From an uncultured Planctomycetota bacterium (GTDB lineage: Bacteria; Planctomycetota; Brocadiia; CAIUPP01): 64,000 nucleotides of DNA. The DNA lies in assembly GCA_903901045.1 (NCBI GenBank), contig CAIUPP010000061.1:38374-102373 (forward strand), written 5' to 3'. Of the stretch, positions 8,135 through 62,780 are shown one piece after another. Numbering within the stretch: position 1 is the stretch's first letter; each line of letters opens with the position of its first letter. Under the pieces are notes generated by a model. It did no database searches. It was not told where the DNA came from and saw only the letters and a program-made list of their open reading frames with translations. Position numbers and translations under genes: made by a program.

Positions 8135-10197
8135 GGCTGCTTATCCTCCGGCGGAGCGGTCGGCTTCTTGCCGAGCCGCAGTTGCAGGTTGAAAATGTCC
8201 ACTTGCACCTTGTGGGAATAGGGGTGGTCGTTCGGCAGCCGGTCCGCCACGGTCAGCAGGATCTGCAGGGCGGTCTGCGGGTCGTCTTTGACCATGTTGA
8301 GGGCGCGGTTGTAATCCACGATGGCGTCATCTTCCATCTTCTTGATCCGGGCGGGCGCATTGCGGTTGGTGGGGTCCAGGAAGATCGCCTGCTGGTACTT
8401 GCGCCGCGCGGTGAGGTAGTCGTTCTGGAGCAGCGCCTTGTCCCCGGCGTCGACCAACTGCGTGGCGGCGGCCCCCTTCTTCGCGCTCAGGGCGGCCAGG
8501 TTGGCCTTTGCCTCGGCGGCGTAGTGGTTGGACTCCGGCTTCTCATAGCGGAGGACTTCGTTGAATTTGTCCTGGGCGGTCCCGAACTCCAAATCCTTGA
8601 GCGCCGCGAGGGCGGCGTCATGCGCGGCGACGACCTGCTTGATCCGCTGCACTTTCTCCGGATCGGCCTTCGGCAGCGTGGCGAGAATCTCAAGCGCCTT
8701 GGGGCCGTCCCCGGCGTTGTAGGCCGCGTCGGCCTGCTTGATGAGATCCTTCGCGTGGGCGACGGCCAGCAGGCCGGCTGCCTCTTTGGCGTAAGGGCTG
8801 TCCGGGGGAATGTCCGTCAGGGCGTCCACGGCGCGCCCCGGCGCGCCCGCGTCCGTCTCGGCGCGCGCGGCTTCGACCTTCTTGCGCTGCTCCTCGTACC
8901 GCCGGTACTGCGCGATCTTCGGTTCGAGCTCCCCGGCCAATGCGGGGGAGGCGCCGGCGAGTTGCTTCATCGAGGCGATGGCGTCGGACCAGTTCTGCGC
9001 GGCGGCCTGGTCGGCGGCGACCTTCTTCAGTTGGGTGATCGACTCCTCGAGAATCGCGGGCACGTCCTTGTAGAATGCGCTGTTCTCCCTGACCTGCCGG
9101 GCATACGTCAGCGCCTTGAGGAAATCGCGGCGCTCCATCGCTTGTTTCGCTTCGGTGAGGCTCGCCATGGATTCGGTCTCGTCGCGGATCCAGAGCAGCC
9201 GCGCTTCGGCCAGGAGCTTGGCGGAGGGGACGCCGCCGCTTTCGGCGGAGCGCTGCACGTCGGCCCAGCGTTTCTTGGCCTCCTCGAACTTCTCTTCAAA
9301 GGCGCGGCGCGCTTCGGCGTCGGCCTTGAACGCGACCAGGAGCAGGCTCGGCAGTTCCGTGCGCGTCTGCATCGGCATTTTGCTCAGCCGTTCGAGTTGC
9401 TGCGCGGCGTTCTCGGTGCGCCCCTCCTGGTACTCCTTCACGGCGCCGGCCATCATCTCCCGGTAGGCCGTCAGCGAGAGCGACTGGGGCCCTTTCTTCG
9501 CCGGCAGGAACAACGCGAGCGCCCCCAGCAGAACGGCCATCAGAAGCGCGCCGATCAGCAGAATCTTCAGTTTGCGGCTGCGCGGGGAAGCGCCGAGGGG
9601 CGCCCCTTCCACCGGCGCGGCGCGGCCCGATTCCTCGCGGCGCGTGACGACGGCCGGCAGCACGACGGGCGCCGCGTCCCCGGCGGGCGCGGCGGAGGGA
9701 ACCACTTCGACCTCGGCCCCGGTGGTGGTATCGCGCACGTACCAGCGGCCGTCGCGGACGATCATCTCCGTCCCGGCTCCTTCGCCGCCGGCGGCGGACT
9801 GGGCGAGGCTCTCATCGGCCGGGGTGGGGGCGTCGTCGGCCTGGAAATCCGGGGCGTCCGGGACGCGGCGCTCCAGTTCGGCGGAGCCGACTTCCAGCGG
9901 GCGCGTGTCCGAAGGCTCATCCTGGTCGAAGCGCATCCAGACGTTGCCCGCGCGCAGGCGCATCCCCGGCTGGAGGCGCGCTTCGTGAATGCGCTGCTGC
10001 CCGATGAAGGTGCCGTTCTTGGTCTCGAGGTCGCGCACGGTAAGCTGCTGGCCGGACAACTCCAGCTCCAGGTGGCGGCGGGAGAGGCTCCCCTCCGGGT
10101 AGCAGATGTCGCAGCCGGGGTCGCGCCCGACGACGCTGATCCCCTCCGGCAGGCGGAACTCGCGCCGCTTTCCCTTGCATTCGATGATGATCCGCAC
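8131..10197 (-). CDS. FHA-domain protein with TM segment and C-terminal TPR repeats
   Basis: N-terminal FHA motifs (GRDPGCDI...LSRRHLEL...RDLETKNGTF), a mid-protein hydrophobic helix, then a TPR-like Ala/Leu-rich C-terminus. Confidence 0.7.
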   Translation of the reverse strand: MRIIIECKGKRREFRLPEGISVVGRDPGCDICYPEGSLSRRHLELELSGQQLTVRDLETKNGTFIGQQRIHEARLQPGMRLRAGNVWMRFDQDEPSDTRPLEVGSAELERRVPDAPDFQADDAPTPADESLAQSAAGGEGAGTEMIVRDGRWYVRDTTTGAEVEVVPSAAPAGDAAPVVLPAVVTRREESGRAAPVEGAPLGASPRSRKLKILLIGALLMAVLLGALALFLPAKKGPQSLSLTAYREMMAGAVKEYQEGRTENAAQQLERLSKMPMQTRTELPSLLLVAFKADAEARRAFEEKFEEAKKRWADVQRSAESGGVPSAKLLAEARLLWIRDETESMASLTEAKQAMERRDFLKALTYARQVRENSAFYKDVPAILEESITQLKKVAADQAAAQNWSDAIASMKQLAGASPALAGELEPKIAQYRRYEEQRKKVEAARAETDAGAPGRAVDALTDIPPDSPYAKEAAGLLAVAHAKDLIKQADAAYNAGDGPKALEILATLPKADPEKVQRIKQVVAAHDAALAALKDLEFGTAQDKFNEVLRYEKPESNHYAAEAKANLAALSAKKGAAATQLVDAGDKALLQNDYLTARRKYQQAIFLDPTNRNAPARIKKMEDDAIVDYNRALNMVKDDPQTALQILLTVADRLPNDHPYSHKVQVDIFNLQLRLGKKPTAPPEDKQP

Positions 10198-21738: not shown

Positions 21739-21815
21739 GGTATTGTTACCTCAATCTCAACATCGCGCCATCTTTCAGTTCTCAGTCTTCAGTCTTCAGT
21801 CTTCAATTCTCGCCG
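21630..21815. repeat. 'empty' heptamer inverted-repeat pair (GAGAACT units) whose ~105-bp loop holds only the tadE-stop/tadG-start junction
   Basis: Left arm GGCGAAAACTGAGAACTGAGAACTGGGAACTGAAAG. Right arm reverse complement is GGCGAGAATTGAAGACTGAAGACTGAAGACTGAGAACTGAAA. Confidence 0.7.
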
Positions 21816-21822
21816 TCCTTCA

Positions 21823-22407
21823 TCACTCGCCCCACGGATGCGCCAGCACGCAACTGCCGGTCATCAGCCAGTGCGCCGCGCCTCCCCACTTCGAGCGGTC
21901 CACGTCGAGGCCGGGGGTCAGGTCGCCCAGCGCGTAGAGGGCGTCGCCGGCGATTGGCACATTCAATTCGTAGTCATGCGATACGTCGGCGTGGATCACC
22001 GGCTGGCCGTTGACCGAATCGGGGTAGACGTTGACGTCGGTCTTCAGTTCCGCCGCGGCGCTGCCGGGGAGCGTCCCCCAGCCGGGCAGGGTGATGGTGT
22101 CGTTGGCGACGACGCCGGAAGTTCCCGTGATGCGGCTCAGCGGGATCAGCGCCGCGCGCTTGCAGGCGGTCGGGTCGATCGCCGGCGACTGCGCCAGCCC
22201 CGCGCGCGCCGCGCAAAAAGCGCTGTACTCGATCACCTGCTGCGCGATGAACAGATGGGCCAGTTGAATGATGACCAGCGTGATCAGCAGTTGGAGCGGG
22301 AAGATGATGGCGTATTCAACCAGCGCCTGCCCCGACTCCGCGCGGGCGGCGCGGCGAGAACTGAAAACTGAGAACTGAAAACTGAGAACTGAGAGTTGGC
22401 GGTTCAT
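21823..22407 (-). CDS. tadE: TadE-like pseudopilin
   Basis: RRAARAESGQALVEYAIIFPLQLLITLVIIQ is a TadE N-terminus. Leader MNRQLSVLSFQFSVFSS is encoded by the repeat arm. Confidence 0.75.
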   Translation of the reverse strand: MNRQLSVLSFQFSVFSSRRAARAESGQALVEYAIIFPLQLLITLVIIQLAHLFIAQQVIEYSAFCAARAGLAQSPAIDPTACKRAALIPLSRITGTSGVVANDTITLPGWGTLPGSAAAELKTDVNVYPDSVNGQPVIHADVSHDYELNVPIAGDALYALGDLTPGLDVDRSKWGGAAHWLMTGSCVLAHPWGE

Positions 22408-22824
22408 CGCGCAGCTCCTTTGTTCGACTTCGCCGTCACCACGGACTTCACGCCTATGGAGATCAGTTCATTCACCTCACTGGCAATGCCGTCCAGGCGA
22501 GCCGGCTTCAACAAATGGGCGTTGCGGCAAAGCTCAATCCAATAGAGCGTCTCGCGCAGTTCTTTCACTACAATCTGCATCTTGTGCGCAAAGTCGGCGC
22601 GACTCTCGGCGCATCTCGCCTCGCAGTAGTTGGCGCCAGGCGACGTGCCGGATCGCAGCAATTGCAGTCCCACATGCCGCCCCGCCGCCGTCTTGGGCAG
22701 CGCGTTCGTCATCGCGATGACCCTCACGGCCAGTTCTTGCAGGCGCTCACCATAATTGCCGCTCTGCGCCACGTTTTATCCTCTCAGTTCTCAGTCTTCA
22801 GTTCTCAGTTTTCAGTTCTCGCCG
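22353..22824. repeat. cassette D: four-helix-bundle gene bracketed by inverted heptamer-repeat arms (GAGAACT units)
   Basis: Left arm GGCGAGAACTGAAAACTGAGAACTGAAAACTGAGAACTGAGAG. Right arm reverse complement is GGCGAGAACTGAAAACTGAGAACTGAAGACTGAGAACTGA. Confidence 0.8.
22404..22772 (-). CDS. four-helix-bundle protein, 23S-IVS-protein family, copy D
   Basis: Family core RSGTSPGANYCEARCAESRADFAHKMQIVVKELRETLYWIEL. GTG start. Confidence 0.8.
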   Translation of the reverse strand: MAQSGNYGERLQELAVRVIAMTNALPKTAAGRHVGLQLLRSGTSPGANYCEARCAESRADFAHKMQIVVKELRETLYWIELCRNAHLLKPARLDGIASEVNELISIGVKSVVTAKSNKGAAR

Positions 22825-22825
22825 T

Positions 22826-23374
22826 TTACTTCAGCAGCAACTCCATCCACGCCCACACAACCCCGATCCCGATGGCCACGCCGTACGGGATCGTCGTCGC
22901 CGGCGCGCCGTCGGCCGGCTTGGCGCGAAGAGTGAAGAGGGCGCGCAGGCTGGATTTGAGGCCGGACAGGAGCCGTCGCTGCCAGATCAGCACGCAGACG
23001 GCAATGGCCGCGCCCACGAGGGCGGCATACATCAGCGCGATGATCACGAAGCCGATGGCGCTGACGCCCGCCGCGCCCGCGAAGGGGGCCAGCGCGCCGA
23101 CGGCCCCCATCATCTTGACGTCTCCCGCGCCCAGGCTGCCCATGAAATAGACCACCAGCAAAATGCCCGCCCCCACCCCCGCCGCCAGCGCCGCGTTGCC
23201 GAGGTGCCAGAAGCCCGGCTGGTTCGTGTCCATCAGGTACGCGCTGGCCAGCCCGATCGCTAGCGCCCCCAGCGTCACCCAGTTATAAAGCTTCCCGCGC
23301 GCCATGTCGGTGTAGACGCACACGACCGCCAGCGCGAGAAGACAACCCTGCCGAACCAGTTCTATGGTTGCCAC
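22826..23374 (-). CDS. tadV: prepilin peptidase (A24 family; CpaA/TadV)
   Basis: 182 aa polytopic protein with the conserved GAGDVKMMGAVG motif. Confidence 0.85.
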   Translation of the reverse strand: MATIELVRQGCLLALAVVCVYTDMARGKLYNWVTLGALAIGLASAYLMDTNQPGFWHLGNAALAAGVGAGILLVVYFMGSLGAGDVKMMGAVGALAPFAGAAGVSAIGFVIIALMYAALVGAAIAVCVLIWQRRLLSGLKSSLRALFTLRAKPADGAPATTIPYGVAIGIGVVWAWMELLLK

Positions 23375-24305: not shown

Positions 24306-24327
24306 GGGGCAAGGCATGCCTTGCCCC
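24306..24327. repeat. family-1 REP-like 22-bp perfect palindrome GGGGCAAGGCATGCCTTGCCCC
   Basis: Exact palindrome. At least 7 copies in the window: 28088, 34868, 38206, 40405, 55339 and 56642 (the last two degenerate), plus the GGGGCGCAGCATGCTGCGCCCC variant at 28005. Confidence 0.85.
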
Positions 24328-25113: not shown

Positions 25114-25274
25114 ACTTCTCCTCTTCCCTGCTGCGCCGATCTATTCACCGCGGAGGCGCGGAGAACGAACGACGCCGTCTTTCATCTCTCAGTTCTCAGT
25201 CTTCAGTTCTCAGTTCTCGCCGTCCTGCGCATCTCCGGGGTGAAAAGGGCAAACGCCCGTCTCGGAGAGAACGT

Positions 25275-26393: not shown

Positions 26394-27824
26394 TCACACA
26401 TGATACACCCGCCCCGGCGCGGACTCCTCCTTCGTGTACCGCGCCAGCAGCGCCATCGCCTGCTCCAGGCCGCCGGCCAGCTCCACGTCGAACCCATTCA
26501 CATGGTCCCCGTGGCGCTCCAGCCAGCTCCAGGCGATGTGCAATTCCTCGGCGTCGCTCGGCGGCGGGGGGGTGGAGAAGAAGAACTCGTTCAGCGCGGC
26601 GCGCGCCTGTTCCGGCTCCGCGCGCGGGATCACCAGCCGCCGCAGCGCGCGCTCGCCGTAGAGCAGGAAGAGCTCCGCCTGTCCCTCCTCGGGCGCGGGC
26701 AGAATCAGCGTCAGGCGCTGCGTCGGCGCTTTCGCCAGCGCTGCGCGCTCGTGGATGTCGAACTGGATATTGATCTTCGGCTGGAGTTTGCGGATCGCGG
26801 CGGATTCTTCCAGCAGCGCCGCCAGTTCGGAGCCGGTGCGGCGGGTCTCCAGCCGCGAGACGGACTCCAGGATGCGCTCCCCCTTCTCGTCGCGGCGCAC
26901 GCGGGCGCGGAAGTAGCTCTTCACCCGCTGGCGCAGGTTCAGCGCTTTCCCCACGTACACGGGAGTGCCGCCGGCCTCCTTGAAAATGTAAATCCCCGGC
27001 TCCTCGGGCAGCTGATCGAGGGTCGCCTTGTCGAATTCATACCCGCTGAAATCCACCTCGCGCCGGACGGGATGCTGCAGCGTGGTCCATTCCTGAGGCG
27101 GGGCCAGGCCCACCTCCTCCGAGCGCGCGAGCATCGCGGCGAAGATCTCGGCGATGAAGCGCGCCTTCTCCTCCGCGCTGGCCGGCTCGCGCGCGGGCAG
27201 CCCGAGCTTGGTCGCGAGGCCGCCCGGCGTGGTTGCGCCCGCACCCAGCGTGCGCTTGGCCAGGCGTTCAAGCGAGAGCGTCTCCGCCTCCTCGCCGGCG
27301 AAGGAGAGGGCATGCGCGACGGCGTTCTGGAACGCGCCGATGCGGAAAGCGACCAACGTGGCGCCCCGCGCGAATTCGGCGGCTTTCGCGACGCACTCCG
27401 ACGCCGGCGGCGCCTGGCGGATCGCCTGTTTCAAATTCGGCGGAAGAATGAGGCCGGAGGGGAAGGGGTCCGGACGGATGGGGGAGCCCGCCGTCCCCTG
27501 CGAACGGCCGGCGGAATCGAGCCGCAGCGCGAACCACTCGACGTCCAGGAAGCGCGCGCCGTCGCGCACCAGCGTCGTCTGGAGGATGGCGTATTCCCCG
27601 GCACCGGCTCCTCCCGCGGGCGCCTTCGCGGCCACCCAGGCGCCCGACGCGTTCTGGCTCAGGCGCGGGTCGCCCGCCAGCACGGTCTTCACCAGCTTGT
27701 CCGTGAGTGGGGAAGGCTTGCCGGTGGGGAAGAGGAACTGCGCGGCGATCTCCTGCGACGCCGCCCCCTGTTCGCCGCGCTCGGCGACGAAGGCGAAGAT
27801 TCTGTCCTGAATGGAATTGCTCAT
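26394..27824 (-). CDS. GIY-YIG domain protein with N-terminal uncharacterised domain (Cho/UvrC-N-like nuclease)
   Basis: ATG at 27824 (MSNSIQDRIF...). The GIY-YIG motif PGIYIFKEAGGTPVYVGKALNLRQRVKSYF lies mid-protein. Confidence 0.55.
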   Translation of the reverse strand: MSNSIQDRIFAFVAERGEQGAASQEIAAQFLFPTGKPSPLTDKLVKTVLAGDPRLSQNASGAWVAAKAPAGGAGAGEYAILQTTLVRDGARFLDVEWFALRLDSAGRSQGTAGSPIRPDPFPSGLILPPNLKQAIRQAPPASECVAKAAEFARGATLVAFRIGAFQNAVAHALSFAGEEAETLSLERLAKRTLGAGATTPGGLATKLGLPAREPASAEEKARFIAEIFAAMLARSEEVGLAPPQEWTTLQHPVRREVDFSGYEFDKATLDQLPEEPGIYIFKEAGGTPVYVGKALNLRQRVKSYFRARVRRDEKGERILESVSRLETRRTGSELAALLEESAAIRKLQPKINIQFDIHERAALAKAPTQRLTLILPAPEEGQAELFLLYGERALRRLVIPRAEPEQARAALNEFFFSTPPPPSDAEELHIAWSWLERHGDHVNGFDVELAGGLEQAMALLARYTKEESAPGRVYHV

Positions 27825-29101
27825 CCCTTGCGCAGCGCCTCCAGCGTCCGGCGCATATCCTCCGGCAGCGGCGCCTCGACCGTCAGCGGCTGCTTCGTCG
27901 CAGGATGCTTGAACGTGATCCGCGCCGCGTGGAGCGCCTGGCGGTCGAGAAGCAGAATGTCGCCCGGGTCGCGCGGCGTTTGCGCGGACTCTGTTTCGTT
28001 GGTGGGGGCGCAGCATGCTGCGCCCCTACGCTCCGTGTGGACGCTCTTCCCCTCGTCCTTTGCTCGCGCGGAACCCTCCGCCGTTGTAGGGGCAAGGCAT
28101 GCCTTGCCCTTGCGCTCCGCATGGGCGCTCTTCCCCTCGTCCCTGTCCGGGCCGGATGCCCGCAGGTCCGACAAGTACAACTTGCTCCGCACACCGTACG
28201 ACCTGTCGCACAGGATCGGATGCCCGAGGGCCTGCAGGTGGACGCGGATCTGGTGCATCCGCCCGGTATAGAGCCGGCAGCGCACCAGCGTGAAGGCCGC
28301 GAAGCGTTCGACCACCTTGAACCCCGTGCGCGCCTCCTGGCCGTCCTCGCGCACCATCATCTGCGCGAGGTTCGCATTCTCGTGCTCCTCCCGGCCCAGC
28401 CGAAGGTCGATGAGCCCTTCCTCCTGCTCGATCACCCCCTCCGCGATGGCCAGGTACTCCTTGGTGATGTCGCTCTGCTCGAAGATGAGCGGCACGGAGC
28501 GATCGTTGCGCCCCGTCTTGCAGACCACGAGCACGCCGCTGGTGTCCTTGTCGATGCGGTGCGCCAGCTTGGGGACGACGTCCTTGCGGTGGTCCTCCAG
28601 GTTGCGGTAGCGCAGGTGCAGGGCGTTGATGAGCGTGTCGTAATGGTGTTTCCCCGCCGGGTGGACCACGATGTTCGGCTGCTTGTTGAGAACGAGAAGC
28701 TGGTCATCCTCGTAGAGGATCTCCAGCGGGATTTCCGCCATCCGTTCGCAGGCGTCCGCCGGGGCGGGGGGGAGCGGCACGCGCACCATCTCGCCGGACT
28801 TGACGCGGTACGAGCAATCCAGCCGCGTCCCCGACGAGGTGACCTCGCGCAGCTCGATCAGTTCCTGCACCTTGGTGCGCGAGCGCCAGCGCAGTTTGAC
28901 CTTGAGAAATTGATCGAGCCGAAGGCCGGCCTGGTCGGGATAGACGAAATGCTCCTCCGCCGCCTGGGGAGTGATGAGGCGGTCGGGCGCCTTCCCCGGC
29001 GGCATTAGCTGCCGGCACTGGCCGGGGCGGCGGGGTTTCGCTGGCTGGGAGGCGGATTGGCTCATATCGCAAAGATACCGGGCGGAGGGGGACAGGGTCA
29101 A
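27821..29101 (-). CDS. RluA-family pseudouridine synthase (RluD-like, S4 + catalytic domain) carrying an in-frame ~50-aa palindromic-repeat insertion
   Basis: RluA motifs (HRIDKDTSGVLVVCKT, LVRCRLYTGRMHQIRVHL). Codons encoding ...DRDEGKSAHAERKGKACLAPTTAEGSARAKDEGKSVHTERRGAACCAPT... map onto two tandem family-1 palindrome units (27985-28135). Confidence 0.8.
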   Translation of the reverse strand: MTLSPSARYLCDMSQSASQPAKPRRPGQCRQLMPPGKAPDRLITPQAAEEHFVYPDQAGLRLDQFLKVKLRWRSRTKVQELIELREVTSSGTRLDCSYRVKSGEMVRVPLPPAPADACERMAEIPLEILYEDDQLLVLNKQPNIVVHPAGKHHYDTLINALHLRYRNLEDHRKDVVPKLAHRIDKDTSGVLVVCKTGRNDRSVPLIFEQSDITKEYLAIAEGVIEQEEGLIDLRLGREEHENANLAQMMVREDGQEARTGFKVVERFAAFTLVRCRLYTGRMHQIRVHLQALGHPILCDRSYGVRSKLYLSDLRASGPDRDEGKSAHAERKGKACLAPTTAEGSARAKDEGKSVHTERRGAACCAPTNETESAQTPRDPGDILLLDRQALHAARITFKHPATKQPLTVEAPLPEDMRRTLEALRKG

Positions 29102-34867: not shown

Positions 34868-34888
34868 GGGGCAAGGCATGCCTTGCCC
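34868..34888. repeat. family-1 REP-like palindrome copy
   Basis: GGGGCAAGGCATGCCTTGCCC. Confidence 0.8.
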
Positions 34889-34929
34889 TCTGACGACGCC
34901 GGGGTGTTTCTCTGCGAGAGGGAGAGCGG

Positions 34930-38011: not shown

Positions 38012-38206
38012 ATGGGTGAGAAGAAAAGTTTCCTTCTGCGCATAGACGCCGGGCTCTGGGATGAACTCCAATCCTGGGCCGACGACGAACTGCGCAGCGT
38101 CAACGGGCAAATCGAATACCTCCTGCGCGAGACGGTGCGGGCGCGGCGCAGCCAGCGCGCAGATAAGCGTAACCCGCAGGGGGCAGCGCGCCGTCCTGTT
38201 CTGTAG
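38012..38206 (+). CDS. Arc-type ribbon-helix-helix DNA-binding protein (putative)
   Basis: FLLRIDAGLWDELQSWADDELRSVNGQIEYLLRE resembles the Arc/RHH beta-alpha-alpha unit with the RSxNxEI motif. Confidence 0.45.
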   Translation: MGEKKSFLLRIDAGLWDELQSWADDELRSVNGQIEYLLRETVRARRSQRADKRNPQGAARRPVL

Positions 38207-38226
38207 GGGCAAGGCATGCCTTGCCC
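38206..38226. repeat. family-1 REP-like palindrome copy
   Basis: GGGGCAAGGCATGCCTTGCCC immediately after the RHH gene stop. Confidence 0.8.
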
Positions 38227-38336
38227 TCCAGCCCGCATAGCGCTCGGCGCCCTCGCCCAGCATTGCACCCCTCCTCCGCCAATTGCTAAGATACGGCATT
38301 GCGCGATATTCCGTTGTTTCTTCCCGGAGCCCAGGA

Positions 38337-40275: not shown

Positions 40276-40404
40276 AATAGGCCACTCGGAGTGCGAGCCG
40301 TGTGTGGCGCGGACTATCCAGTCCGCGTCGCGGGCGGAACGCCCGCGGTGCCGTTACTGGGGAGCAGTATGCTGCGCCCTGGTCGGGAAGGGCGATCGCC
40401 CAGG

Positions 40405-40426
40405 GGGCAAGGCATGCCTTGCCCCT
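40405..40426. repeat. family-1 REP-like palindrome copy (perfect)
   Basis: GGGGCAAGGCATGCCTTGCCCC between the pilin gene and the gyrB stop. Confidence 0.85.
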
Positions 40427-44734: not shown

Positions 44735-46090
44735 TCATCGGCCCGACGACGTCGTGAGGCTCTGCTTGAGTTGATCCATGGTTTTGGAAAGAGAGGGATT
44801 ATTGCGGACATCTTCCGCAATCTTGGACTCGGCATGGAGCACCGTGCTGTGGTCGCGGCCGCCGAAATACCCCCCGATTTCCTCCAGTGAGAGAGTCGTC
44901 AGCGCGCGCGCCAGATACATGCAGACCTGGCGGGGCATGACGATCGAGCGCGTCCTCTTTTTCGATTGAAGGTCGGCGACGCGCACGTTGAAATGCGCCG
45001 TGACGACGCGCATGATCTCTTCTATCGTGACCGCCGCCATCGGCGAAGCCGGCTCATGCAGCGCCGTCCGCGCGACTTCCAGCGTGATAGGCTTGTTCAA
45101 CAGCGAGGCATACCCCAGCACTTTGGTGATCGCGCCATCCAATTCGCGGATGTTGCTGGTGATCAGGTTGGCGATGAACTCGATCACGTCGTCCGGGATC
45201 TCCACCTGGCGCAACTCCGCCTTCCGATGGAGGATCGCCACGCGCATTTCGTAGCCGGGGGGGTCGATGCGCGCGACCAGCCCGCTCTTGAACCGCGAGG
45301 TGAGCCGCTCCTGCAGGCCGGAAAGGTCCTGCGGCGGCTGGTCGCTGGAGATGACGATCTGCTTCTGCGCGTTGTAGAGATCGTTGAACGTGTGGAAGAA
45401 CTCCTCCTGGCTGCGCTCGGCGCGAGAGAGGAACTGGATGTCATCGATGAAGAGGAAGTCGAGCTGCCGGTAGCGGGCGCGGAAGGAGGGGAGGTCGTTG
45501 CGCTGAATCGCGGCGATGAATTCGTTGACGAACGTTTCGCAGGAGAGGTACGCGATGCGCCGCGCGCCGAATTTCGCGCGGCCGACGTGGCAGATCGCCT
45601 GCAGCAGATGACTCTTGCCCAGGCCGACGGCGCCGTACAGGAAGAGCGGATTGTACGTGCGCCCGGGGCTTTCGCTCACCGCGATGGCGGCGGCATGCGC
45701 GAGCTGGTTCGACGGGCCCACCACGAAGGAGTCGAACGTGTAATGCTCGTTCAGCCGCAGGCCGGGGCCGATCACGACCGGTTCCATGGGGAGCTGTTCC
45801 AGCGGCTCCGGCTCGCGCGGCGCGGGGGCCGGGGCGGAAGCGTCCAGGCTGAAGCGGATGGCCGGCTGGCCGCCCATCACCTGCACAGCGCACTCCTGAA
45901 GGAGTTTCAGGTAGTTCTGCGCCAGCCACTCCTTAAAGAAGTTGTTCGGCACGCGGATGACCAATTCTTCCGCGCTGCAGGAGACCGGCTTGAGGTTCTG
46001 GAACCAGGTGGCGTACTGCTGCTGGCTGACTCGCTTGCGGATGGCATCAAGAAATTCCGGCCAGACGGTCGTTTCCGTCAGCAAGGTCAT
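44735..46090 (-). CDS. dnaA: chromosomal replication initiator DnaA
   Basis: ATG at 46090 (MTLLTETTVWPEF...). AAA+ Walker A GAVGLGKSHLL and the C-terminal DnaA-box-binding HTH. Confidence 0.95.
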   Translation of the reverse strand: MTLLTETTVWPEFLDAIRKRVSQQQYATWFQNLKPVSCSAEELVIRVPNNFFKEWLAQNYLKLLQECAVQVMGGQPAIRFSLDASAPAPAPREPEPLEQLPMEPVVIGPGLRLNEHYTFDSFVVGPSNQLAHAAAIAVSESPGRTYNPLFLYGAVGLGKSHLLQAICHVGRAKFGARRIAYLSCETFVNEFIAAIQRNDLPSFRARYRQLDFLFIDDIQFLSRAERSQEEFFHTFNDLYNAQKQIVISSDQPPQDLSGLQERLTSRFKSGLVARIDPPGYEMRVAILHRKAELRQVEIPDDVIEFIANLITSNIRELDGAITKVLGYASLLNKPITLEVARTALHEPASPMAAVTIEEIMRVVTAHFNVRVADLQSKKRTRSIVMPRQVCMYLARALTTLSLEEIGGYFGGRDHSTVLHAESKIAEDVRNNPSLSKTMDQLKQSLTTSSGR

Positions 46091-46550
46091 AGGCGTCTCC
46101 AGTGTGATGCTCCGGCCGAGGCCGGCGGCTTGCGATGATCGGACGGCGCTGCCAGGCGGCAATATGTCCCGGATCGAAACAGACGGCCGAGGATTCGACC
46201 TGAACGCTCTGGGCTGCGCCGGACGGCAACCAAGTATGTTACGCACCGCCCGGCAGGATGTCAACAAGCGGAAACAAGAGGGGGGATGCCGGTTGCGCAG
46301 GACTTGGAGTGCGCCGCCAAAGGCGGCGCTTTGGCTGCGTACGAACGGGCCATTCCCGGCCGACCCCGCGCATGAGCGAATCCGGCCCAAGACAAAGCGG
46401 CGTCTTTGCCGCCGCAGTCCACACTGTCGCGCCTTGTCATCGCACAAGCTTGCCAAAGTATTGGTTGAACGTTGATCCCGGTCCCCCCTCTCCGCCGCTT
46501 GCATTCCCCGCAGTCCCTCCCGTATGCTCAGGCTCCTTCAGGAGGGAAAA

Positions 46551-46596
46551 GGGGTCTGGCTGCTTTTCACCGTTGTGAAAAGATGCCTGACCCCGG
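46551..46596. repeat. family-2 palindromic element GGGGTCNGGCTGCTTTTCRCCGTKGYGAAAAGATGCCTGACCCC
   Basis: Nearly identical copy at 55263-55308, which lies inside the pabB ORF. Confidence 0.75.
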
Positions 46597-46614
46597 TTCG
46601 CCCGGGAGAGCAGG

Positions 46615-47646
46615 ATGGTCTGGCAGGAACATATCGGCGCGCTTCACGTGCATTCCCGGTACAGCGACGGCTCCGGGACGGTGGAGGAGATTCTCCGCGC
46701 CGCGCGGCAGGCGGGGCTCGACCACGTCGTGCTGACCGACCACGACAGCCTCGCGGCGGCGCGCGAGGGATGGGGCGGCGAGCGCAGCGGGGTGCGGCTG
46801 ATGGTGGGCGTCGAGATCACCCCCAGGGGTCAGGCGCACGTCCTGGCGCTGCGGGTAGACCATTGCGAGGGGTACGCGGCGCGGCACAACGCGCGGGCGC
46901 TGGATGAGGTGGTGGCGCAGGGGGGGTATGCGCTGGTCGCGCACCCGCTGGGGAAGAACAAGCCGCTGCTGGGGATCCGCCAGCCCCCCTGGTACAACTG
47001 GAGCCACCCCGCCATTCGCGGCCTTGAACTCTGGTCGTACACGCATGACTGGGTGGATGGGGTGGCCTGGTGGCGGCTGCCGGAGGCGTACAGCTTCTGG
47101 CGGCATCCGGAGAGCAAGGTGCGCGGGCCGTATCCCGGCGTGCTGTCGATGTGGGATGAAATGGGCCGAAGCCGCCGGCTGGCCGGATGGGGGGGCGTCG
47201 ATTGCCACGCCAAGCCGGTTCCGCTGACCGGCTGGAAGGTGTTCGGCTACGAGCGGATGTTCCGCTTCCTGCGCAATCACCTCTTCATCGAGGAGACGGA
47301 ATACCGGCGCGATCCGGACGCGGCGATCTGGTCGGCGCTGGCGGAGGGGCGCGGCTTCCTGGCGCACGACGCGCTGGCGGATTCGACCGGCGCGCGCTGC
47401 GGCTGCCTCTTCGATGATGGGCGGCTCCTGCAGATGGGGGAGGAAGCGCCGTTCGCCCACGGCGCGGTGATGACGCTGTCGCTGCCGGAGGAGGGGGAGA
47501 TTCGCTGGCTGCAGGATGGCCGTTGCCGCCTCTGCGCCCGCGGACGCGCGCTGCACGGGGAACCGGCGGGGCCGGGGGTGTATCGCTTCGAGGTGCTGCG
47601 CCGCGGGAGGCCCTGGCTGTTCACGAATCCGTTCTATCTGCGCTGA
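46615..47646 (+). CDS. PHP-domain (polymerase/histidinol-phosphatase-like) metal-dependent phosphoesterase
   Basis: LHVHSRYSDGSGT...VLTDHD is a PHP motif I/II. Confidence 0.7.
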   Translation: MVWQEHIGALHVHSRYSDGSGTVEEILRAARQAGLDHVVLTDHDSLAAAREGWGGERSGVRLMVGVEITPRGQAHVLALRVDHCEGYAARHNARALDEVVAQGGYALVAHPLGKNKPLLGIRQPPWYNWSHPAIRGLELWSYTHDWVDGVAWWRLPEAYSFWRHPESKVRGPYPGVLSMWDEMGRSRRLAGWGGVDCHAKPVPLTGWKVFGYERMFRFLRNHLFIEETEYRRDPDAAIWSALAEGRGFLAHDALADSTGARCGCLFDDGRLLQMGEEAPFAHGAVMTLSLPEEGEIRWLQDGRCRLCARGRALHGEPAGPGVYRFEVLRRGRPWLFTNPFYLR

Positions 47647-49005: not shown

Positions 49006-51111
49006 TCACTTCCCGGCGGCCGCCTCCAGCGCCTGCAGCCGGCGCTCCAGCGCCTGCGCCGCCGCGCGCTGATCCGCGCACTCCTTCTTCAGCGCGGCGA
49101 TCTCTGCCTCTTTCTGCTGAACGACCTTGTAGAGCCCCTGGATGGAGGCCAGGGCGATGCCGTTGGCATCCAGCGCGCAGATCGTCTTGTCGTCGCCGCC
49201 GAGCCGGAAGGCGGCGTAGAGGTCCTGCGCCATCGGGCCGAGGTGCTGGACCGACGGGCCGTTGACCTTGTAGTTCCATGCCTGCACCGGCACGGCGGCC
49301 AGTGTGCGCAAAATCGCCAGCGTGTCCACGGCGGTGAGGTTCTCTTTGCGCGCCCGGTCGGAGGTGTCGTGCCAGTTGCCGTCAACCCCCAGGTAAGCGC
49401 CGGTCGAGGTGTCGATGACTTTGGTCGCGTCGTTCGGCTGAATGGTGATGACCGCTCCGCCGCTATACGTGAACGTGTTCTGCAAACCGGTGAACAGGTT
49501 GTTGTTGGCCAGATGCGCCATTTGAGAAGCGTGGTCGCCGTCGAGCATGTCCGCGTTGAGGTTGGCGACCAGCGAGGTCGAGCTGACGGCGAACGGGGCG
49601 GTGCCGGTGGCGACCATGGACACGATCTGCCCGCCGGCAAAGATGCGGTTGGGGGTGGCCAGCCCGTACCCGGAGGGGCTGGAGGACTGTCCATACACGC
49701 CATAGGTGGCGCCGGAGCCCGCGCCTGCGATGCCCAGGACACCCATGTACGGCGCCCAGGCGGATACGCCGGTTCCCGTGTCGCCGTTGGCGGTGAAGTG
49801 GCCGCCGATGTTCGACACCGCGCCGGGTGCGGAGGCGTTCCCTTCCACCCCGAGATGCGGCGCCGTGGCCTCAACGCCGACGCCGCTGTTGCCCGAAGCA
49901 ATGAAATAGCCGCCGTAGTTGGTGACATCGCCGGTCGCCGTCGCCGAGGCATAGACGCCGCGCGCCGCGTTGCCGCCGGCGGTGAAGTAGCCGCCATAGT
50001 TGCCCAGATCCCCTGTTCCGGTGGCTATTCCCTGAACGGCCAGGAATGACGCCGTGCCAAAGACCCCGGTGCCGAAATTGCCCCCTGCGGAGAAACTGCC
50101 GCCGACGTTGCTGATGTCGCCGCCGGCCACGGCAGAGCCGCTGACGCCCACGCCGCTCTCACCTGCGGCCGTGAAGTAGCCGCCGTAGTTTGTCCTTGCG
50201 CCGGTGGCTGTGGCGCTGCCGCGCACCGCCTGCGCGCCGGAGTTGGAATCGAAGGTCGACACTTGGAACTTCGCCACGGTCCCGGTCGTGCCGACGCCGA
50301 CCGTGCCGTCCGCGAGAATGCGCATCGCTTCCAAGCCGTTGGTCTTGAGCACGAGCGCCTGCGAATCCGTGGTGCCCAGGAAGTTCGTGCCGGGCGTCGT
50401 GTCCGCATTGCCGATGCGCGACCAGGCGTCCAGGCTGCCGGGCGTGCCCGCGGGCCCGCTCAAACCAGTTGCGCCCGTGGGGCCCATTGCGCCGGTTGCT
50501 CCGGTAGCGCCGGCCGCACCCGCTGCGCCGGTCAGGCCTGTTGCGCCGGTCGAGCCCGTCGCACCCGTCGCACCCGTTGCGCCGGTCGCGCCGGTCGGAC
50601 CTGTTGCGCCAGCAGCGCCGGTCGGGCCCGTGGGTCCTGCCGGCCCCGCCGCGCCCGCCGCGATTTCCGCAGCGTGCAATCCGTCCAGGGTGTCTGCGTC
50701 GCCGGCCGTCGCGGCGTAAAGGCTCTGCATCAAATTACCGAGGGGCCGCCGCGTGGCCAGCGGGATATAGGTGCCGGTCCCCGCCACGGCGCGATACGCC
50801 ACCTGCACCCAGCGCGCCTCGCCGTTGAATGCGCCCGCGCCGAAATCGAGCGAGACGGTATACGCGCCCTTGGTGATCACCGTGCCCGAATGGTCCACGG
50901 CGCCGCCGATCTGCAAGCCGCCGGTGGCGGCATTCCAGAGAGTGAAGCGCATGTCGCACGGGCTCTTCACCTTGGCCTCGGTCTTACCGATGGTGTCGCT
51001 GAATAGGAAGGCGGTTCCCATGGGCGCCGCGAACGCCGCGGCGCAGACGAAAGACAAAACGGCCAGAACGGCTGCGACATTCCGCGCGCACCGCCGCATT
51101 CCCGTCGACAT
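49006..51111 (-). CDS. secreted collagen-like (Gly-X-Y) repeat protein with C-terminal phage-tail-fibre-type intramolecular chaperone (Peptidase_S74-like) domain
   Basis: Signal peptide. [22 protein letters not shown]... tract. Repeated YGGYFTAxG units. C-terminal [12 protein letters not shown]...VQAWNYK matches the S74 chaperone 'SDxRxKxNI' signature. Confidence 0.75.
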
Positions 51112-52502: not shown

Positions 52503-54145
52503 AGGGCCGCGGGCGAAGGATTGGACTCGTCCGGCGCGGCGGCTTGCTGAAGCGCGGTGTCATGCAAGCCTGTCCCCGACCGCCGTTCCGCAATGATCGC
52601 GTCCGGCTTGCCCGGGAGGAAACCGATCCGCAAGCCGTTCGTGAACTGCACTCCGTCCACCCCGGCATCGGAATACGCCGTCGGCGGGGCCGAAGGGGTC
52701 TCCTGCGCGTACAGGATGAACTGGTTGGCTCCGTCATGAAGGTCCGGCAGCGCTTCGGGGGCGCACTGCAGCGTGGTCACCACGTCGAGCGACTGAATCC
52801 GCAGCCCCGCCTCCGGCACCGAGATTCCCAGCGCGTAGCCGAAGAGCGGCTGCCCGCTGAAGAACTCATCCAGGACCACCGAGCAATCCCCCGTCAATGC
52901 GCCCGCCGGCCGCCACGCTTCCAGGGAGGGGAGTTGCCCCCGCGCGAACGGCAGGATGGAAAGCTGCGCAGGCTCCGGCGACTCGACGGAGGCGACGACC
53001 CGCGCGCCGGTCATCAGGAAGGGGCTGGTCATCGGAACCACCAGGCTGGCCGGGCGCAGCGGCTCGATCCGGCGCAGCACCAGCGAACCATCCTTCAGCG
53101 AGAGGGAGACGTTCTCCAGCAGCAGCCCGTGCGGCGCTCCGCCGGCGAAGTTTTCCGGCAGGTAGCGCCACATCAGCCGGCCGGTGGCTTCGATCGGGAG
53201 CGGCATTTCGTAGGAAGCCCCGTTGCGCATGGGGAAAATTTCGGTGCGCTCGCCGGGGAGCAGGTCGAAGCGCATATAGTGGTGGAACATGTGGAAGAGC
53301 CCCGGGATGCGCTCGCGGTCGGCCAGCGACGGCTCTCCCTCGGCGCGTTCGAGGTACTCGACCTGCCCTTTGCGGAAAGCGTCGGCCAGCGTCTTGGGGG
53401 GGTAGTAGGCGTGGGGCGTGTTCTCCACCGGAGTCGCATCCGCCTTGAGATCCTCGGCCGAGGCCCATTCGCCGTCGGCGCGGCGGTAGACGGCATGCCC
53501 GTCTGGGTCCATGTAAATCCAGCGGCCGTCCGCGTACGCCTCCATCACGCAGTGCGCGATGGGAGGTTCCCCCTCTTCATACGTGATCCCCAGCAGGCGG
53601 GTCTTGCAGCCGGCCAGTTCGCACAGGGTGGAAAGCGTCTGGGCGGCATAATTGCACTGGGCGGTGCCCATGACGCTGAAAAGGGTGGGGGGATCCAGCA
53701 GCATTCCCCCGGTGCTGATGGGGTCGTAGTTGTAATAGTAGCGAGGGAAGAGGGCCCAGAGGGCGAGGACTTTGTCCGTCTCGGTGCGCGCGCCCGCCGT
53801 CACCGAGTCCACGATGGTCTGGGCGCTGTAGAAGTTGGGCATGTCGGCGCGGTAGAACCAGAAGTTCCGCACCTGGCGCGAGGAGGCATTCTCGATGACG
53901 ATCATTTCGGTGAAGGCGTCCGCCGCGTCCGCCGGGATGGCGAAAGAGCACCGCGACATCTGCGGCGCGCCCCGCAGGTCCACCTGACGCCAGCCGTCGG
54001 TGAAATCGCGTTCCGCCAGGGTCACCCCCGCCCCCCGCGGCTCCAGCCAGCCATTTCGGCAAGCTGCGATTCCGCCGAGGACCAGCAGCGCCACCAGTCC
54101 GGCCGGCACCGTCACCACCAGCAGCCAATGCTTGAACACCGCCAT
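52481..54145 (-). CDS. transglutaminase-like cysteine-protease-fold protein (membrane anchored)
   Basis: Core Cys...His...Asp arrangement (TAQCNYAAQTL...AHCVMEAYADGRWIYMDPD). The 3' end overlaps the convergent mltA by 22 nt. Confidence 0.65.
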   Translation of the reverse strand: MAVFKHWLLVVTVPAGLVALLVLGGIAACRNGWLEPRGAGVTLAERDFTDGWRQVDLRGAPQMSRCSFAIPADAADAFTEMIVIENASSRQVRNFWFYRADMPNFYSAQTIVDSVTAGARTETDKVLALWALFPRYYYNYDPISTGGMLLDPPTLFSVMGTAQCNYAAQTLSTLCELAGCKTRLLGITYEEGEPPIAHCVMEAYADGRWIYMDPDGHAVYRRADGEWASAEDLKADATPVENTPHAYYPPKTLADAFRKGQVEYLERAEGEPSLADRERIPGLFHMFHHYMRFDLLPGERTEIFPMRNGASYEMPLPIEATGRLMWRYLPENFAGGAPHGLLLENVSLSLKDGSLVLRRIEPLRPASLVVPMTSPFLMTGARVVASVESPEPAQLSILPFARGQLPSLEAWRPAGALTGDCSVVLDEFFSGQPLFGYALGISVPEAGLRIQSLDVVTTLQCAPEALPDLHDGANQFILYAQETPSAPPTAYSDAGVDGVQFTNGLRIGFLPGKPDAIIAERRSGTGLHDTALQQAAAPDESNPSPAALYSFAIR

Positions 54146-54381
54146 AGCCCACCCCCTCGAATGCGAACCATCTACGTGCAACTCTATTTCATGTGCAATC
54201 GGCATGCCGCAACTCGCGCAATCCGCGGGCGCACCGCTTTTGTGCTTGCGGGACTAGTGGATTCGCGCAATTTGCGGCGATCGCATGGCTGGCACATTCC
54301 CCCACCTGTTGTGTGTGGAAATCCTACACCCAGGAATTTCAGACACAGGCGGGTCGAAGATAGCACCGGGCCGGGAGAAAT

Positions 54382-55941
54382 TCAAGTGAAATTTAACATG
54401 TTTTTTGCGCCCACTGCCGCCAGCAGCGCGAGCGCTTTTTGCGCCGTTTCGTCGAACTCCGCCTCCGGCCGGCTGTCGGCGACGATGCCGCCCCCGGCCT
54501 GCAGCCAGACCTTGCCTTCGACGGTCAGGATCGTGCGGATGGCGACGCTCATCTCCAGCGCGCCGTCGAACCCCAGGAAGCCGACCGCGCCGGTGTACAC
54601 GGAGCGGGCGGTCGGCTCCAGCTCGTCGATGATCTGCATCGCCCGGACTTTGGGCGCGCCGGTGATGGAGCCGCAGGGGAAGGTCGCGCGCAGCAGATCC
54701 ACCCGGTCGCGGTCGCCGTGGAGTTCCCCCGAGACGGTGGCGACCAGATGATGAACCGTGGGATAGCTCTCCAGGCGCCGCGCCTCCTCCACCCGCACCG
54801 AGCCGTAGGAGCAGACGCGCCCGAGGTCGTTGCGTTCCAGGTCCACGATCATCGCCAGTTCGGCGTTGTCCTTTTCGCTGAGCAGAAGCTCCTGCGCGAG
54901 CGCGCGGTCCTCCTGCGCCGAGACGCCGCGCGGGCGCGTTCCCTTGATCGGCCGCGTCTCCACGCGCCCCCCGCGCAACGAGAGAAACCGCTCCGGCGAG
55001 GCGCTGACCACGGCACGCCCTCCCCCCAAGTCCAGATACGCCGCCATCGGCGCAGGGTTGATCCGGCGCAGCCGCAGATAGAGTTCCCACGGGGGCAGCG
55101 CGCAGGCCGCCTCGAATCGGCGCGAGAGGTTCACTTGGAAAATATCGCCCGCCGCGACGTACTCGATGCACCGCGCCACCGCCCGGAGATATTCCGCGCG
55201 CGAGAAGTTGCAGCGCAACTCCCCCGCAATGCCGGACGAGGCGAATAGCGAATTGCGAATAATGGGGTCGGGCTGCTTTTCGCCGTGGCGAAAAGATGCC
55301 TGACCCCATTTCGTCTTCGCCCAGGCGGATTCCGCCGTGGGGGCAAGGCATGCCCCGCCCCTGCCCGCGACGCCAGGAGCCGTCGCCGGCAGAACGCCGG
55401 TCAGCCGCTCCGCCAGTTCCCCCGCCGCCCGCGCCGCGTTGCGCCCGCCCGCCGCGCACCCCACCGCCCACGCCCGCTGCTCCTGCAGGTCGTACACAAT
55501 GGCGGCATCGTGGAACGCCAGGTGCGATTCCGGCAGGGGGATATCCGCGAGGGCGCGCCTCGGCAATTGCTCGATGAAATGGCAGAGGTCGTACCCCAGG
55601 TATCCCACCGCGCCGCCGAGAAACGGCGTCTCCGGGTGCGGAGGAAAAGTGCGCTCGTTCAGCAGCCGGCGCATTTCGCGGAAGGGATCCTCTTCCACGC
55701 GGCGCTCACCCGCCGCAGCGCGCAGAAGAAGGCTCCGGCCGGCGGACTGCATCACGCGATACGGGCGGCAGCCCAGGAGGCTGTATCGCGCCAGTCCGGG
55801 CATCGGCAGCGCGCTGTCCAGAAAGAACGCCCCCTCCTCGCGCGCCAGAAGGCGGAACGCCTCCTCGGGAGCGGGAGGATGGGGCAGCGGAACGACGCAA
55901 ACCGGCGCAGGCATGACGCACCCCTCAAGAAGAACCGGCAA
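54382..55941 (-). CDS. aminodeoxychorismate/anthranilate synthase component I (PabB/TrpE family) with in-frame repeat insertion
   Basis: Chorismate-binding domain motifs (SPERFL, IKGTRPRG, TFPCGSITGAPK). A ~45-aa insert (...GRGGACLAPTAESAWAKTKWGQASFRHGEKQPDPII...) is encoded by family-1 and family-2 palindromes. Confidence 0.85.
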   Translation of the reverse strand: MPVLLEGCVMPAPVCVVPLPHPPAPEEAFRLLAREEGAFFLDSALPMPGLARYSLLGCRPYRVMQSAGRSLLLRAAAGERRVEEDPFREMRRLLNERTFPPHPETPFLGGAVGYLGYDLCHFIEQLPRRALADIPLPESHLAFHDAAIVYDLQEQRAWAVGCAAGGRNAARAAGELAERLTGVLPATAPGVAGRGGACLAPTAESAWAKTKWGQASFRHGEKQPDPIIRNSLFASSGIAGELRCNFSRAEYLRAVARCIEYVAAGDIFQVNLSRRFEAACALPPWELYLRLRRINPAPMAAYLDLGGGRAVVSASPERFLSLRGGRVETRPIKGTRPRGVSAQEDRALAQELLLSEKDNAELAMIVDLERNDLGRVCSYGSVRVEEARRLESYPTVHHLVATVSGELHGDRDRVDLLRATFPCGSITGAPKVRAMQIIDELEPTARSVYTGAVGFLGFDGALEMSVAIRTILTVEGKVWLQAGGGIVADSRPEAEFDETAQKALALLAAVGAKNMLNFT

Positions 55942-56217
55942 ATGGTAGCGGATGTGCGCCTCCGCCGCAAGGAAGGCGGAGCGGGTTCTTTGCCCGGCCC
56001 GCTCGTTGTTTCCGGATCAAGCGCGCTGGGACAGCGCGCTCCACCATGCCACCGTCGCGTCCGATCTGCGGACTCGCACGTAGGCACGGGCTTTAGCCCG
56101 TGCGCCTGTGGGCGGGCGAGGGCCCGCCCCTACGCGCCAATGCGCCCCCCCCCCGCATGCTTGCATCCTCCGCCGCGCGGCGGTATCGTGTCGGCGGTTC
56201 AACAGAGCGAGGGCTCC

Positions 56218-56625
56218 ATGCACATCCACGAGACGACGATCCGCGTCCTGTACGCCCACACCGACAAAGCGGGGGTGGTCTATTACGCGAACTACCTTCA
56301 GTTCTTCGAGACCGGGCGGACGGAGTACCTGCGCGCGCTGGGGAAGAGCTATGCCGACTTCGAGCGCGACGGAATCATTCTCACCGTCACCGAGGCCGCG
56401 CTCAAGTACCATCGCCCCGCGGTCTATGACGACCTGCTCGCCATCCGCACCCGCGTCACGCGCATCCGGCGCACGCGAATGGATTTTCTCTATGAAGTGC
56501 GCAACGCCGCCGGGGAGCTGCTGTGCGAGGGGAGCACCGTGCTGGGTTGCCTGGATACGACCACCAAGCGTCCGCGCGAACTGCCCGCCGATCTGGTGGC
56601 GCTGGTGGGGGCGGTCGACGCGTAG
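56218..56625 (+). CDS. YbgC/4HBT-family acyl-CoA thioesterase
   Basis: 135 aa hot-dog fold with the VYYANYLQFFE motif. Confidence 0.8.
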   Translation: MHIHETTIRVLYAHTDKAGVVYYANYLQFFETGRTEYLRALGKSYADFERDGIILTVTEAALKYHRPAVYDDLLAIRTRVTRIRRTRMDFLYEVRNAAGELLCEGSTVLGCLDTTTKRPRELPADLVALVGAVDA

Positions 56626-62704: not shown

Positions 62705-62780
62705 GGACGGGTAGCTCAGCTGGTAGAGCACAGGACTGAAAATCCTGGTGTCGGCGGTTCGATCCCGCCCCCGTCCACCA
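62705..62780 (+). tRNA. tRNA-Phe (anticodon GAA)
   Basis: 76 nt. Acceptor stem GGACGGG/CCCGTCC. Anticodon loop CTGAAAA. T-loop GGTTCGATCC. Encoded CCA. Confidence 0.85.

Follow-up and report, generated by a model that had tools for sequence, protein, structure and literature searches.

Can non-coding palindromic repeats be written into the gene of a folate-pathway enzyme without breaking it, and how would they have come to lie there? The question is raised by pabB, the gene for aminodeoxychorismate synthase component I, on a 64,000-nt stretch of DNA from an uncultured Planctomycetota bacterium (GCA_903901045.1, contig CAIUPP010000061.1, positions 38,374 to 102,373; this whole stretch is called the window below, and positions are counted from its first base). 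An original prediction, made from the sequence alone, had placed a composite of two palindromes in frame inside this gene. In this study, the best explanation found for positions 55240-55365 is that two unrelated palindromic repeats, both non-autonomous and named F1 and F2 here, lie clustered within the pabB coding sequence. We consider it probable that both landed in a permissive, disordered linker of the protein and persisted there.

Two palindromes in the inter-domain linker of PabB

The pabB open reading frame (ORF) occupies 54382-55941 on the minus strand and encodes 519 aa in the ORF list; elsewhere the start is called at M10 (55914), which gives 510 aa, and P0001 is the identical 510-aa protein. 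The predicted membership in the PabB/TrpE family was borne out. Pfam places Anth_synt_I_N at residues 25-157 and Chorismate_bind at residues 248-502, the best sequence matches in the PDB are the PabB proteins of Bacillus subtilis and Escherichia coli (E ~1e-89 to 1e-87, best 1.8e-89), and homologs are annotated as para-aminobenzoate synthetase component I. The reading frame is continuous, with a G+C content at third codon positions (GC3) of 0.84, and the window as a whole has 66% G+C. By its GyrB, which is 75-76% identical to that of metagenome-assembled genomes named 'Candidatus Brocadiia bacterium', the organism falls among Brocadiia-related Planctomycetota.

The first repeat is a 56-nt F2 hairpin at 55258-55313 (plus strand), which covariance model R1 recovers with 71.5 bits (E 1e-12). 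Its 44-nt core, GGGGTCGGGCTGCTTTTCGCCGTGGCGAAAAGATGCCTGACCCC, is an exact pattern match at 55264-55307 on the plus strand; the original prediction had put the element at 55263-55308, thus finding it and missing each end by one base. Translated from the minus strand, the hairpin includes KWGQASFRHGEKQPDPI, and the peptide first quoted for the insert is indeed the true translation of the 519-aa ORF. As mRNA, the pabB copy folds with -35.1 kcal/mol (z -7.8), while its T-run is eroded to ATTATTCGC. The hairpin is part of a 90-nt block at 55240-55329 (minus strand, 30 codons, PabB S205-A234) which a codon-level DNA alignment shows to be missing from the ortholog L001, and in which A/T-rich CGAA/TTCG flanks lengthen the inverted repeat. 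The second repeat lies 27 nt from F2 and is the degenerate F1 palindrome that had been expected here. A pattern search locates it at 55340-55361 (22 nt, without strand, GGGGCAAGGCATGCCCCGCCCC on the plus strand), with two mismatches to the consensus-type copies. It encodes R194-P201 (..GRGGACLAPT..), and the GTAG/CTAC tags that would flank it are both mutated (GCAG and CCAC). Neither the F1 nor the F2 pattern was matched in 100 dinucleotide-preserving shuffles of the window, which served as the null model. Peptides derived from the repeats include GKACLAPT, GEKQPDP and FRAFAV.

Within the protein, the repeat-derived segment corresponds to residues 193-234 and thus lies between both Pfam domains. 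Where the window protein has 71 residues between the aligned blocks, that of B. subtilis has 31. An AlphaFold model from a shallow alignment of 15 sequences (mean predicted local distance difference test score, pLDDT, 64) leaves residues 184-239, which follow helix 169-181 and precede helix 248-263, without secondary structure at a pLDDT of 22-28; the remainder of the model matches the B. subtilis and E. coli PabB structures with target-normalised template modelling (TM) scores of 0.81-0.83. By prediction, the insert would thus lie in a surface loop which the fold tolerates. The window protein retains every column that is invariant over the alignment of 15 PabB sequences. Among 120 homologs the linker mostly measures 22-29 aa, as against 67 aa in the window protein, and in distant homologs the insert is not conserved as protein sequence, a result which would have spoken against a repeat origin had it turned out otherwise. 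The linker is expanded to 35-76 aa in 19 of the 120 homologs, and many of these 19 carry repeat-like peptides in it. In L054 and L055, whose PabB is 57-58% identical, the same linker holds a third palindrome family, F3 (TTGACCGCGAAAGCGCGAAA...TTTCGCGCTTTCGCGGTCAA), of which a further copy lies in an intergenic spacer of L055 (9317-9400) about 600 nt upstream of pabB.

The possibility that the insert is an artefact of assembly, or that pabB is a decaying pseudogene, would be in keeping with repeats being classic sites of misassembly and with a frameshifted C-terminus in the pabB of the ortholog L002. However, 11 contigs carry the identical insert-bearing protein of 510 aa, in assemblies of several independent samples from ENA, JGI, NCBI and Logan, which makes an assembly artefact unlikely, and the continuous frame, the intact invariant columns and the GC3 value argue against decay. 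We regard both as very improbable.

Presence and absence among orthologous loci

Four further loci (L001, L002, L003 and L021) keep the gene order Lyx_isomer (D-lyxose isomerase), 4HBT (thioesterase) and pabB or are clearly orthologous, and outside the linker their PabB is 77-89% identical to that of the window at the amino-acid level. The syntenic orthologs are about 80-89% identical. Insertions were analysed in a codon-level DNA alignment of the window with L001, L002, L021 and L003. At the site of the decayed copy of the window, L001 has a perfect F1 with the two tags in place, TGTAGGGGCAAGGCATGCCTTGCCCCTACA; it lacks F2 and at the F2 position is shorter by exactly 30 codons, so that its AERL..CNFSR segment has 42 aa as against 72 aa in the window. 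In L002, F2 (GAAAAGGGGTCAGGCATCTTTTCACAACGGCGAAAAGCAGCCTGACCCCTTTTC) is present in the orientation and frame of the window, together with partial right-arm repeats and without F1. L021 contains F2 in the opposite orientation, with the asymmetric 2x2 internal loop flipped and a different apical loop, and likewise has no F1. Neither repeat is present in L003, which at that position has six 7-nt units (GAATGCG-like) in tandem. The coding F2 copies of L002 and L021 fold with -37.8 and -31.6 kcal/mol, respectively, and all three pabB copies of F2 are read in one frame with respect to the hairpin arms (K-R/W-G-Q-A-x-F...E-K-x-P-D-P).

This presence and absence in orthologs shows F1 and F2 in pabB to be insertions; their family membership, in-frame state and place in the linker, and the retention of the hairpin, are likewise shown by the data. 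As judged from the aligned sequences, the patterns of F1 and F2 cannot both be single events on any tree of these loci, and at least one repeated insertion, precise loss or inversion in situ would be required. We also considered the perfect F1 of L001 as proof of selection or gene conversion; with 0 changes versus 5 (p ~0.06) the difference is not significant, and this interpretation was rejected. Separately, the C-terminal end of pabB is frameshifted in the Logan assembly of L002 (L002:3300-3546), for which an assembly error or a decaying gene are both possible.

The F1 and F2 families outside pabB

Copy counts for both families refer to the 64-kb window and to the collected metagenome loci. 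The F1 consensus is a perfect 22-nt palindrome, GGGGCAAGGCATGCCTTGCCCC; with its flanks it forms a 30-mer which folds with -24.4 kcal/mol (z -5.4). In the window, F1 has seven copies, four of them intergenic and three in ORFs. The intergenic copies, to which no strand is assigned, lie at 24306-24327 and 38206-38227 (both with GTAG on the left side), at 34868-34889 between two plus-strand genes, and at 40404-40425 between convergent genes, 27 nt past the gyrB 3' end and with CTAC on the right. Two of the coding copies are found in an rluD/rluA-like pseudouridine synthase ORF (27821-29101, minus strand; Pfam PseudoU_synth_2 and S4), where a 59-aa in-frame insert (27977-28153, minus strand, residues 317-375) contains a compensated F1-type variant, GGGGCGCAGCATGCTGCGCCCC, at 28005-28026 and a consensus-type copy at 28089-28110. 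The two form a direct and not an inverted repeat, and their frame (..RKGKACLAPTT.., ..RRGAACCAPT..) is the one used in pabB. The closest homolog, P0241 (84% identity in alignment A3), has this insert as well, whereas P0242 and seven more distant homologs lack it. The segment is genuinely internal rather than a C-terminal tail, and the homolog alignment confirms the second coding case that had been proposed for this window.

Of 20 distinct F1 copies, 17 have GTAG at one end of the palindrome, or CTAC at the opposite end, directly next to it. GTAG is the tetranucleotide by which TnpA_REP/RAYT enzymes (transposases associated with repetitive extragenic palindromes, REPs) recognise and cut REPs (PMC8266576), and REP/REPIN-RAYT systems have been described repeatedly (PMC3116915; PMC3337134; PMC8266576). 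F1 combines a short, GC-rich stem-loop palindrome with this tag and an inverted doublet, the two copies of which lie about 25 nt apart at L046:1829-1907 (REPIN-like); by its sequence features, F1 is a GTAG-tagged REP-type palindrome. Like GTAG REPs, F1 is multi-copy and sometimes forms an inverted doublet, and, with four of its seven window copies intergenic, it may share their preference for sites between genes near 3' ends. In a GTAG-tagged F1, one of the three frames contains a TAG stop, which leaves two frames usable for coding. Di Nocera et al. (2013, PMC3733652) have reported REPs that lie entirely within ORFs, among them genes for pseudouridine synthases, as well as REP families of Planctomycetes and Verrucomicrobia. 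Unlike the GTAG REPs usually described, F1 has a high share of coding copies (three of the seven in the window), its pabB copy in the window has lost both tags, it was found in an uncultivated Brocadiia-related planctomycete, and no RAYT was detected in the 0.5 Mb of DNA searched. An exact F1 24-mer, GTAGGGGCAAGGCATGCCTTGCCC, is present in six short IMG/VR contigs classed as viral (L056-L061); F2 was not found in the viral contigs searched.

The covariance model detects exactly two F2 copies in the window, both 56-nt hairpins. The second lies at 46545-46600 (plus strand, core 46551-46594, 72.8 bits with R1) in the divergent spacer between dnaA (44735-46504, minus strand) and a gene for a PHP-domain protein (46615-47646, plus strand), as identified with Pfam. 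The element that the original prediction had reported at 46551 upstream of dnaA is therefore a member of the family, but it is not identical to the pabB copy: the two cores match at 40 of 44 positions, and two of the four differences are a compensatory change from G-C to A-T in the inner stem. A scan of metagenomes for the F2 core yielded 41 loci with about 45 distinct copies, most of them intergenic. Together with the presence and absence in orthologs, these copies uphold the earlier statement that the same non-coding repeat is found in intergenic DNA and also as an insert read in frame within coding sequence.

The consensus of the metagenome copies is GGAAAAGGGGTCAGGCTGCTTTTCGCCGTTGCGAAAAGATGCCTGACCCCTTTTCC. 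The consensus 56-nt hairpin, GGAAAAGGGGTCAGGC-TG-CTTTTCGC-CGTT-GCGAAAAG-AT-GCCTGACCCCTTTTCC, folds with -42.7 kcal/mol (z -9.9), and its stem is flanked by A4 and T4 (TTTTCC). In an alignment of 31 distinct copies, 90% of the cells are paired, and pairing falls to 44-58% when partner columns are slid by one to three positions. Cells with double changes number 33 as against 12.5 in shuffles, and none of 500 shuffles reached the observed value. Covariation extends to the A/T flank, where A-T is replaced by T-A in L046 and in the window pabB copy and by C-G in L048, and to the outer stem, in which GGGGTC/GACCCC becomes GGGGAC/GTCCCC in a Nitrospiria metagenome-assembled genome (MAG) and several metagenome contigs, and GGGGCC/GGCCCC in L029. 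The non-pairing 2x2 internal loop is kept in place also in copies outside the search pattern (TA/TT, TG/TT, TC/GT). Of its six reading frames, F2 leaves four open.

Genes in the metagenome loci were called crudely, on the basis of GC3. With these calls, about 24 of 41 distinct intergenic F2 copies lie less than 100 nt, and often 5-40 nt, downstream of a predicted stop codon; several are between convergent genes, and there is no orientation bias. As far as such calls can tell, these are the places where terminators and REPs sit. F2 has the look of a bidirectional terminator or of an mRNA 3'-end hairpin, and we refer to it as a terminator-like element and not as a terminator. As the pabB copy is not flagged by a simple terminator scan, the label rests on the family consensus and on the placement of the copies. 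Intragenic copies were also considered at L024, L029, L035 and L048/L051, where Pfam domains are found only downstream of F2 or not at all; these are more likely 5' untranslated regions or mis-called starts and were rejected as coding cases.

At gathering score, the only Rfam match in the whole window is a tRNA at 62705, and an E-value scan of 55150-55450 gave only sub-threshold matches of 13-21 bits, compared with gathering scores of 50-120. Rfam does not contain the F2 hairpin family, and no description of it was found in the literature searched. Nor is F2 a MITE (a miniature transposable element with inverted repeats), being a hairpin over its whole length that has no structure of terminal inverted repeats (TIRs) and target-site duplication and no known parent insertion sequence. 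MITE-like units bounded by 17-nt TIRs (GTAATGCCTCAGTTACG ... CGTAACTGAGGCATTAC) do enclose one or two F2-type hairpins at L042:1634-1790, L047:1-200, L050:699-900 and L030:417-600; such units are not present in the window. At L014:2816-3277, three F2 copies form a tandem array about 203 nt apart, after three partial left arms (GGATAACTGAGGGAAACGGGGTC). A further RNA, Acido-Lenti-1 (RF01687), scores above the gathering score on two contigs that bear F2 (L036:9139-9333, L050:1614-1660). In a scan of genome contigs of species representatives, the F2 core was found in two copies, both in the Nitrospiria MAG JBGPTH01 (L004:3292-3335, L005:573-616) and both with the covaried outer stem and a different apical stem. 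The hairpin family thus crosses phylum boundaries.

F1 and F2 are neighbours in intergenic DNA too, namely in L013 (F2 at 9303-9358 and F1 at 9366-9387, 8 nt apart) and in L020 (992-1046 and 1074-1095, 28 nt apart). The composite in pabB is therefore one example of a clustering that these repeats show more widely.

The classic example of repeats inserted in frame into coding sequence is that of the Rickettsia palindromic elements (RPEs; reviewed in PMC10969869). As with RPEs, palindromic repeats are here found between genes as well as in frame in housekeeping genes of unrelated kinds, where they would add a peptide loop that, by prediction, the fold can accommodate: F2 in pabB and in the dnaA spacer, F1 in pabB, twice in the rluD-like gene and at four intergenic sites. 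RPEs, however, are about 100-150 bp long and described with a conserved peptide, whereas F1 has 22-30 nt and F2 56 nt, and they belong to a different phylum and lifestyle. Membership of F1 or F2 in the RPE families (RPE-1 to RPE-10 of Rickettsia) is implausible in view of size and host. SPRITE, also a dispersed repeat, looks like a terminator and nests with repeats of other kinds (PMC10969869). F2 resembles it in being a stem-loop scattered in near-identical copies, with a T-run (and, on the opposite side, an A-run), which typically lies a few tens of nucleotides after stop codons and clusters or nests with other families. It differs from SPRITE in that its T-run has only 4 nt and its terminator role is putative, in its conserved non-pairing 2x2 internal loop, and in its occurrence inside the TIR-bounded units. 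Very small dispersed repeats of cyanobacteria are short palindromes which become inserted into each other and, at times, into genes. These repeats and MITEs have different hosts and no evident sequence similarity, and are likened to F1 and F2 by description only. Anabaena MITEs that carry ORFs are known (MITE review, PMC10969869).

Other repeats of the window include 7-nt runs, (GAGAACT)n and (AGTTCTC)n, that form inverted pairs at 21637-21665 and 21776-21806 and occur also at 22326-22394, 22775-22828 and 25173-25226; the 7-nt tandem repeat in the pabB linker of L003 is similar to them. One pair brackets the start codon of a Tad-like ORF (19168-21738, minus strand), with one arm in the N-terminal coding part, and could act as a regulatory hairpin over the translation start. 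At 49766-50214, five 71-nt units with alternating spacings of 108 nt and 81 nt lie inside a large ORF, which probably encodes a repetitive beta-strand protein.

Origin and persistence of the insertions

Under the explanation that we favour, F1 would have entered pabB before the lineage of the window split from that of L001 and would now be decaying in the window, and F2 would have arrived later or have been lost from L001. F1 may have been spread by a RAYT-type Y1 transposase. Both elements could have persisted as they add a length divisible by three, are read in a frame free of stop codons, and lie in a disordered, length-variable linker between the N-terminal and the chorismate-binding domain. 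Because of this location, the roughly 40 extra residues may form a surface loop that leaves the enzyme intact and presumably active. By analogy with intragenic repeats known elsewhere, the elements are best regarded as passengers, selfish or neutral, and not as functional protein sequence.

Several results weigh against this account. A tblastn search with E. coli RayT against 0.5 Mb of DNA (the window and the collected loci) gave nothing below E = 1, and no Y1 transposase was found among about 30 window ORFs scanned against Pfam. The RAYT result is a weak negative because RAYT genes are typically single-copy and only 64 kb of the genome were covered; still, with no transposase found, we infer mobility only from the dispersal of the copies and from presence and absence in orthologs. 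Around the pabB F2 no target-site duplication is visible, and a terminator scan of 54000-56500 (criterion: at least 5 T in 8) did not flag it. Further, the pabB F2 is still a very stable hairpin, which fits a recent arrival or structural selection and sits poorly with neutrality if the insertion is old. Finally, the presence of F2 in the pabB linker of three orthologs and in two orientations can be read as site-specific.

The last point leads to targeted, site-specific integration, in which the DNA of the linker or a resident palindrome would be a preferred target of elements that recognise hairpins, an idea that does not exclude the explanation favoured here. At least four repeat types (F1, F2, the 7-nt tandem repeat and the F3 of L054 and L055) have been found in the same stretch of about 30 codons, the two orientations of F2 would agree with such targeting, and so would the adjacency of F1 and F2 in intergenic DNA; nesting is also reported for BOX, RUP and SPRITE (PMC10969869) and for REPs in other palindromes (PMC3733652). 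On the other hand, the flanks of the junctions are not conserved between lineages, the linker varies in length in most PabB homologs, which alone would predict a build-up of insertions, and other permissive loops have been hit as well, as in rluD. We judge targeting to be unlikely.

Co-option of the pabB hairpin as an RNA, for instance as an intragenic attenuator, as an RNase or processing site or as an inter-domain translational pause kept by structural selection, appears somewhat less probable still. Such a role would account for the full integrity of the coding hairpins in the window, L002 and L021, for the occurrence of F2 in the same linker of three orthologs, and for the covariation over the family as a whole. 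Yet the closest relative L001 has no F2 and L003 neither repeat, with no sign of gene decay. The orientations in L002 and L021 differ and would give different internal and apical loops in the mRNA, the window copy, which the terminator scan does not flag, has an eroded T-tract behind its stem, and in other lineages unrelated repeats are found at the same spot. It is tempting to go further and to combine both ideas: the linker might be a true integration hotspot in Brocadiia-related planctomycetes, where a machinery that recognises hairpins aimed repeatedly at the spot, or at a palindrome resident in it, and at least four unrelated families were brought in and then flipped or replaced in situ, and F2, with a core shared with Nitrospirota, might be a horizontally spreading 'portable terminator' that stays intact because it modulates pabB expression. 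We hold this combined scenario to be as doubtful as co-option.

Chance resemblance, or a reversed polarity in which the coding linker was the source of the intergenic repeats, has only the general variability of linkers in its favour and can practically be dismissed in view of the shuffles without a match, the covariance model E-value of ~1e-12, the dozens of intergenic copies in unrelated contexts and the orthologs that have no element.

Repeats inside genes have been described before, and by analogy the insertion of F1 and F2 into a coding linker would work like that of intragenic GTAG REPs, RPEs and SPRITE. New here are the series of alleles seen across orthologs, the repeated occupation of a single linker by different families, and the F2 family as such. 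The locus provides a clean natural example of non-coding repeats that were written into an enzyme of an essential pathway, folate synthesis, without breaking it, on the premise that PabB remains active, and the 'before' and 'after' alleles both survive in sister lineages. One protein linker has been used repeatedly by several repeat families, and the 'selfish DNA in coding genes' of the REP and RPE type is extended to an uncultivated lineage of Planctomycetota. In practice, the annotation and clustering of metagenome proteins are inflated and confused by peptides like GKACLAPT, GEKQPDP and FRAFAV, and the F1 and F2 repeats are likely break points of assemblies. F2, shared with a Nitrospiria MAG, could merit cataloguing as a candidate terminator-like element.

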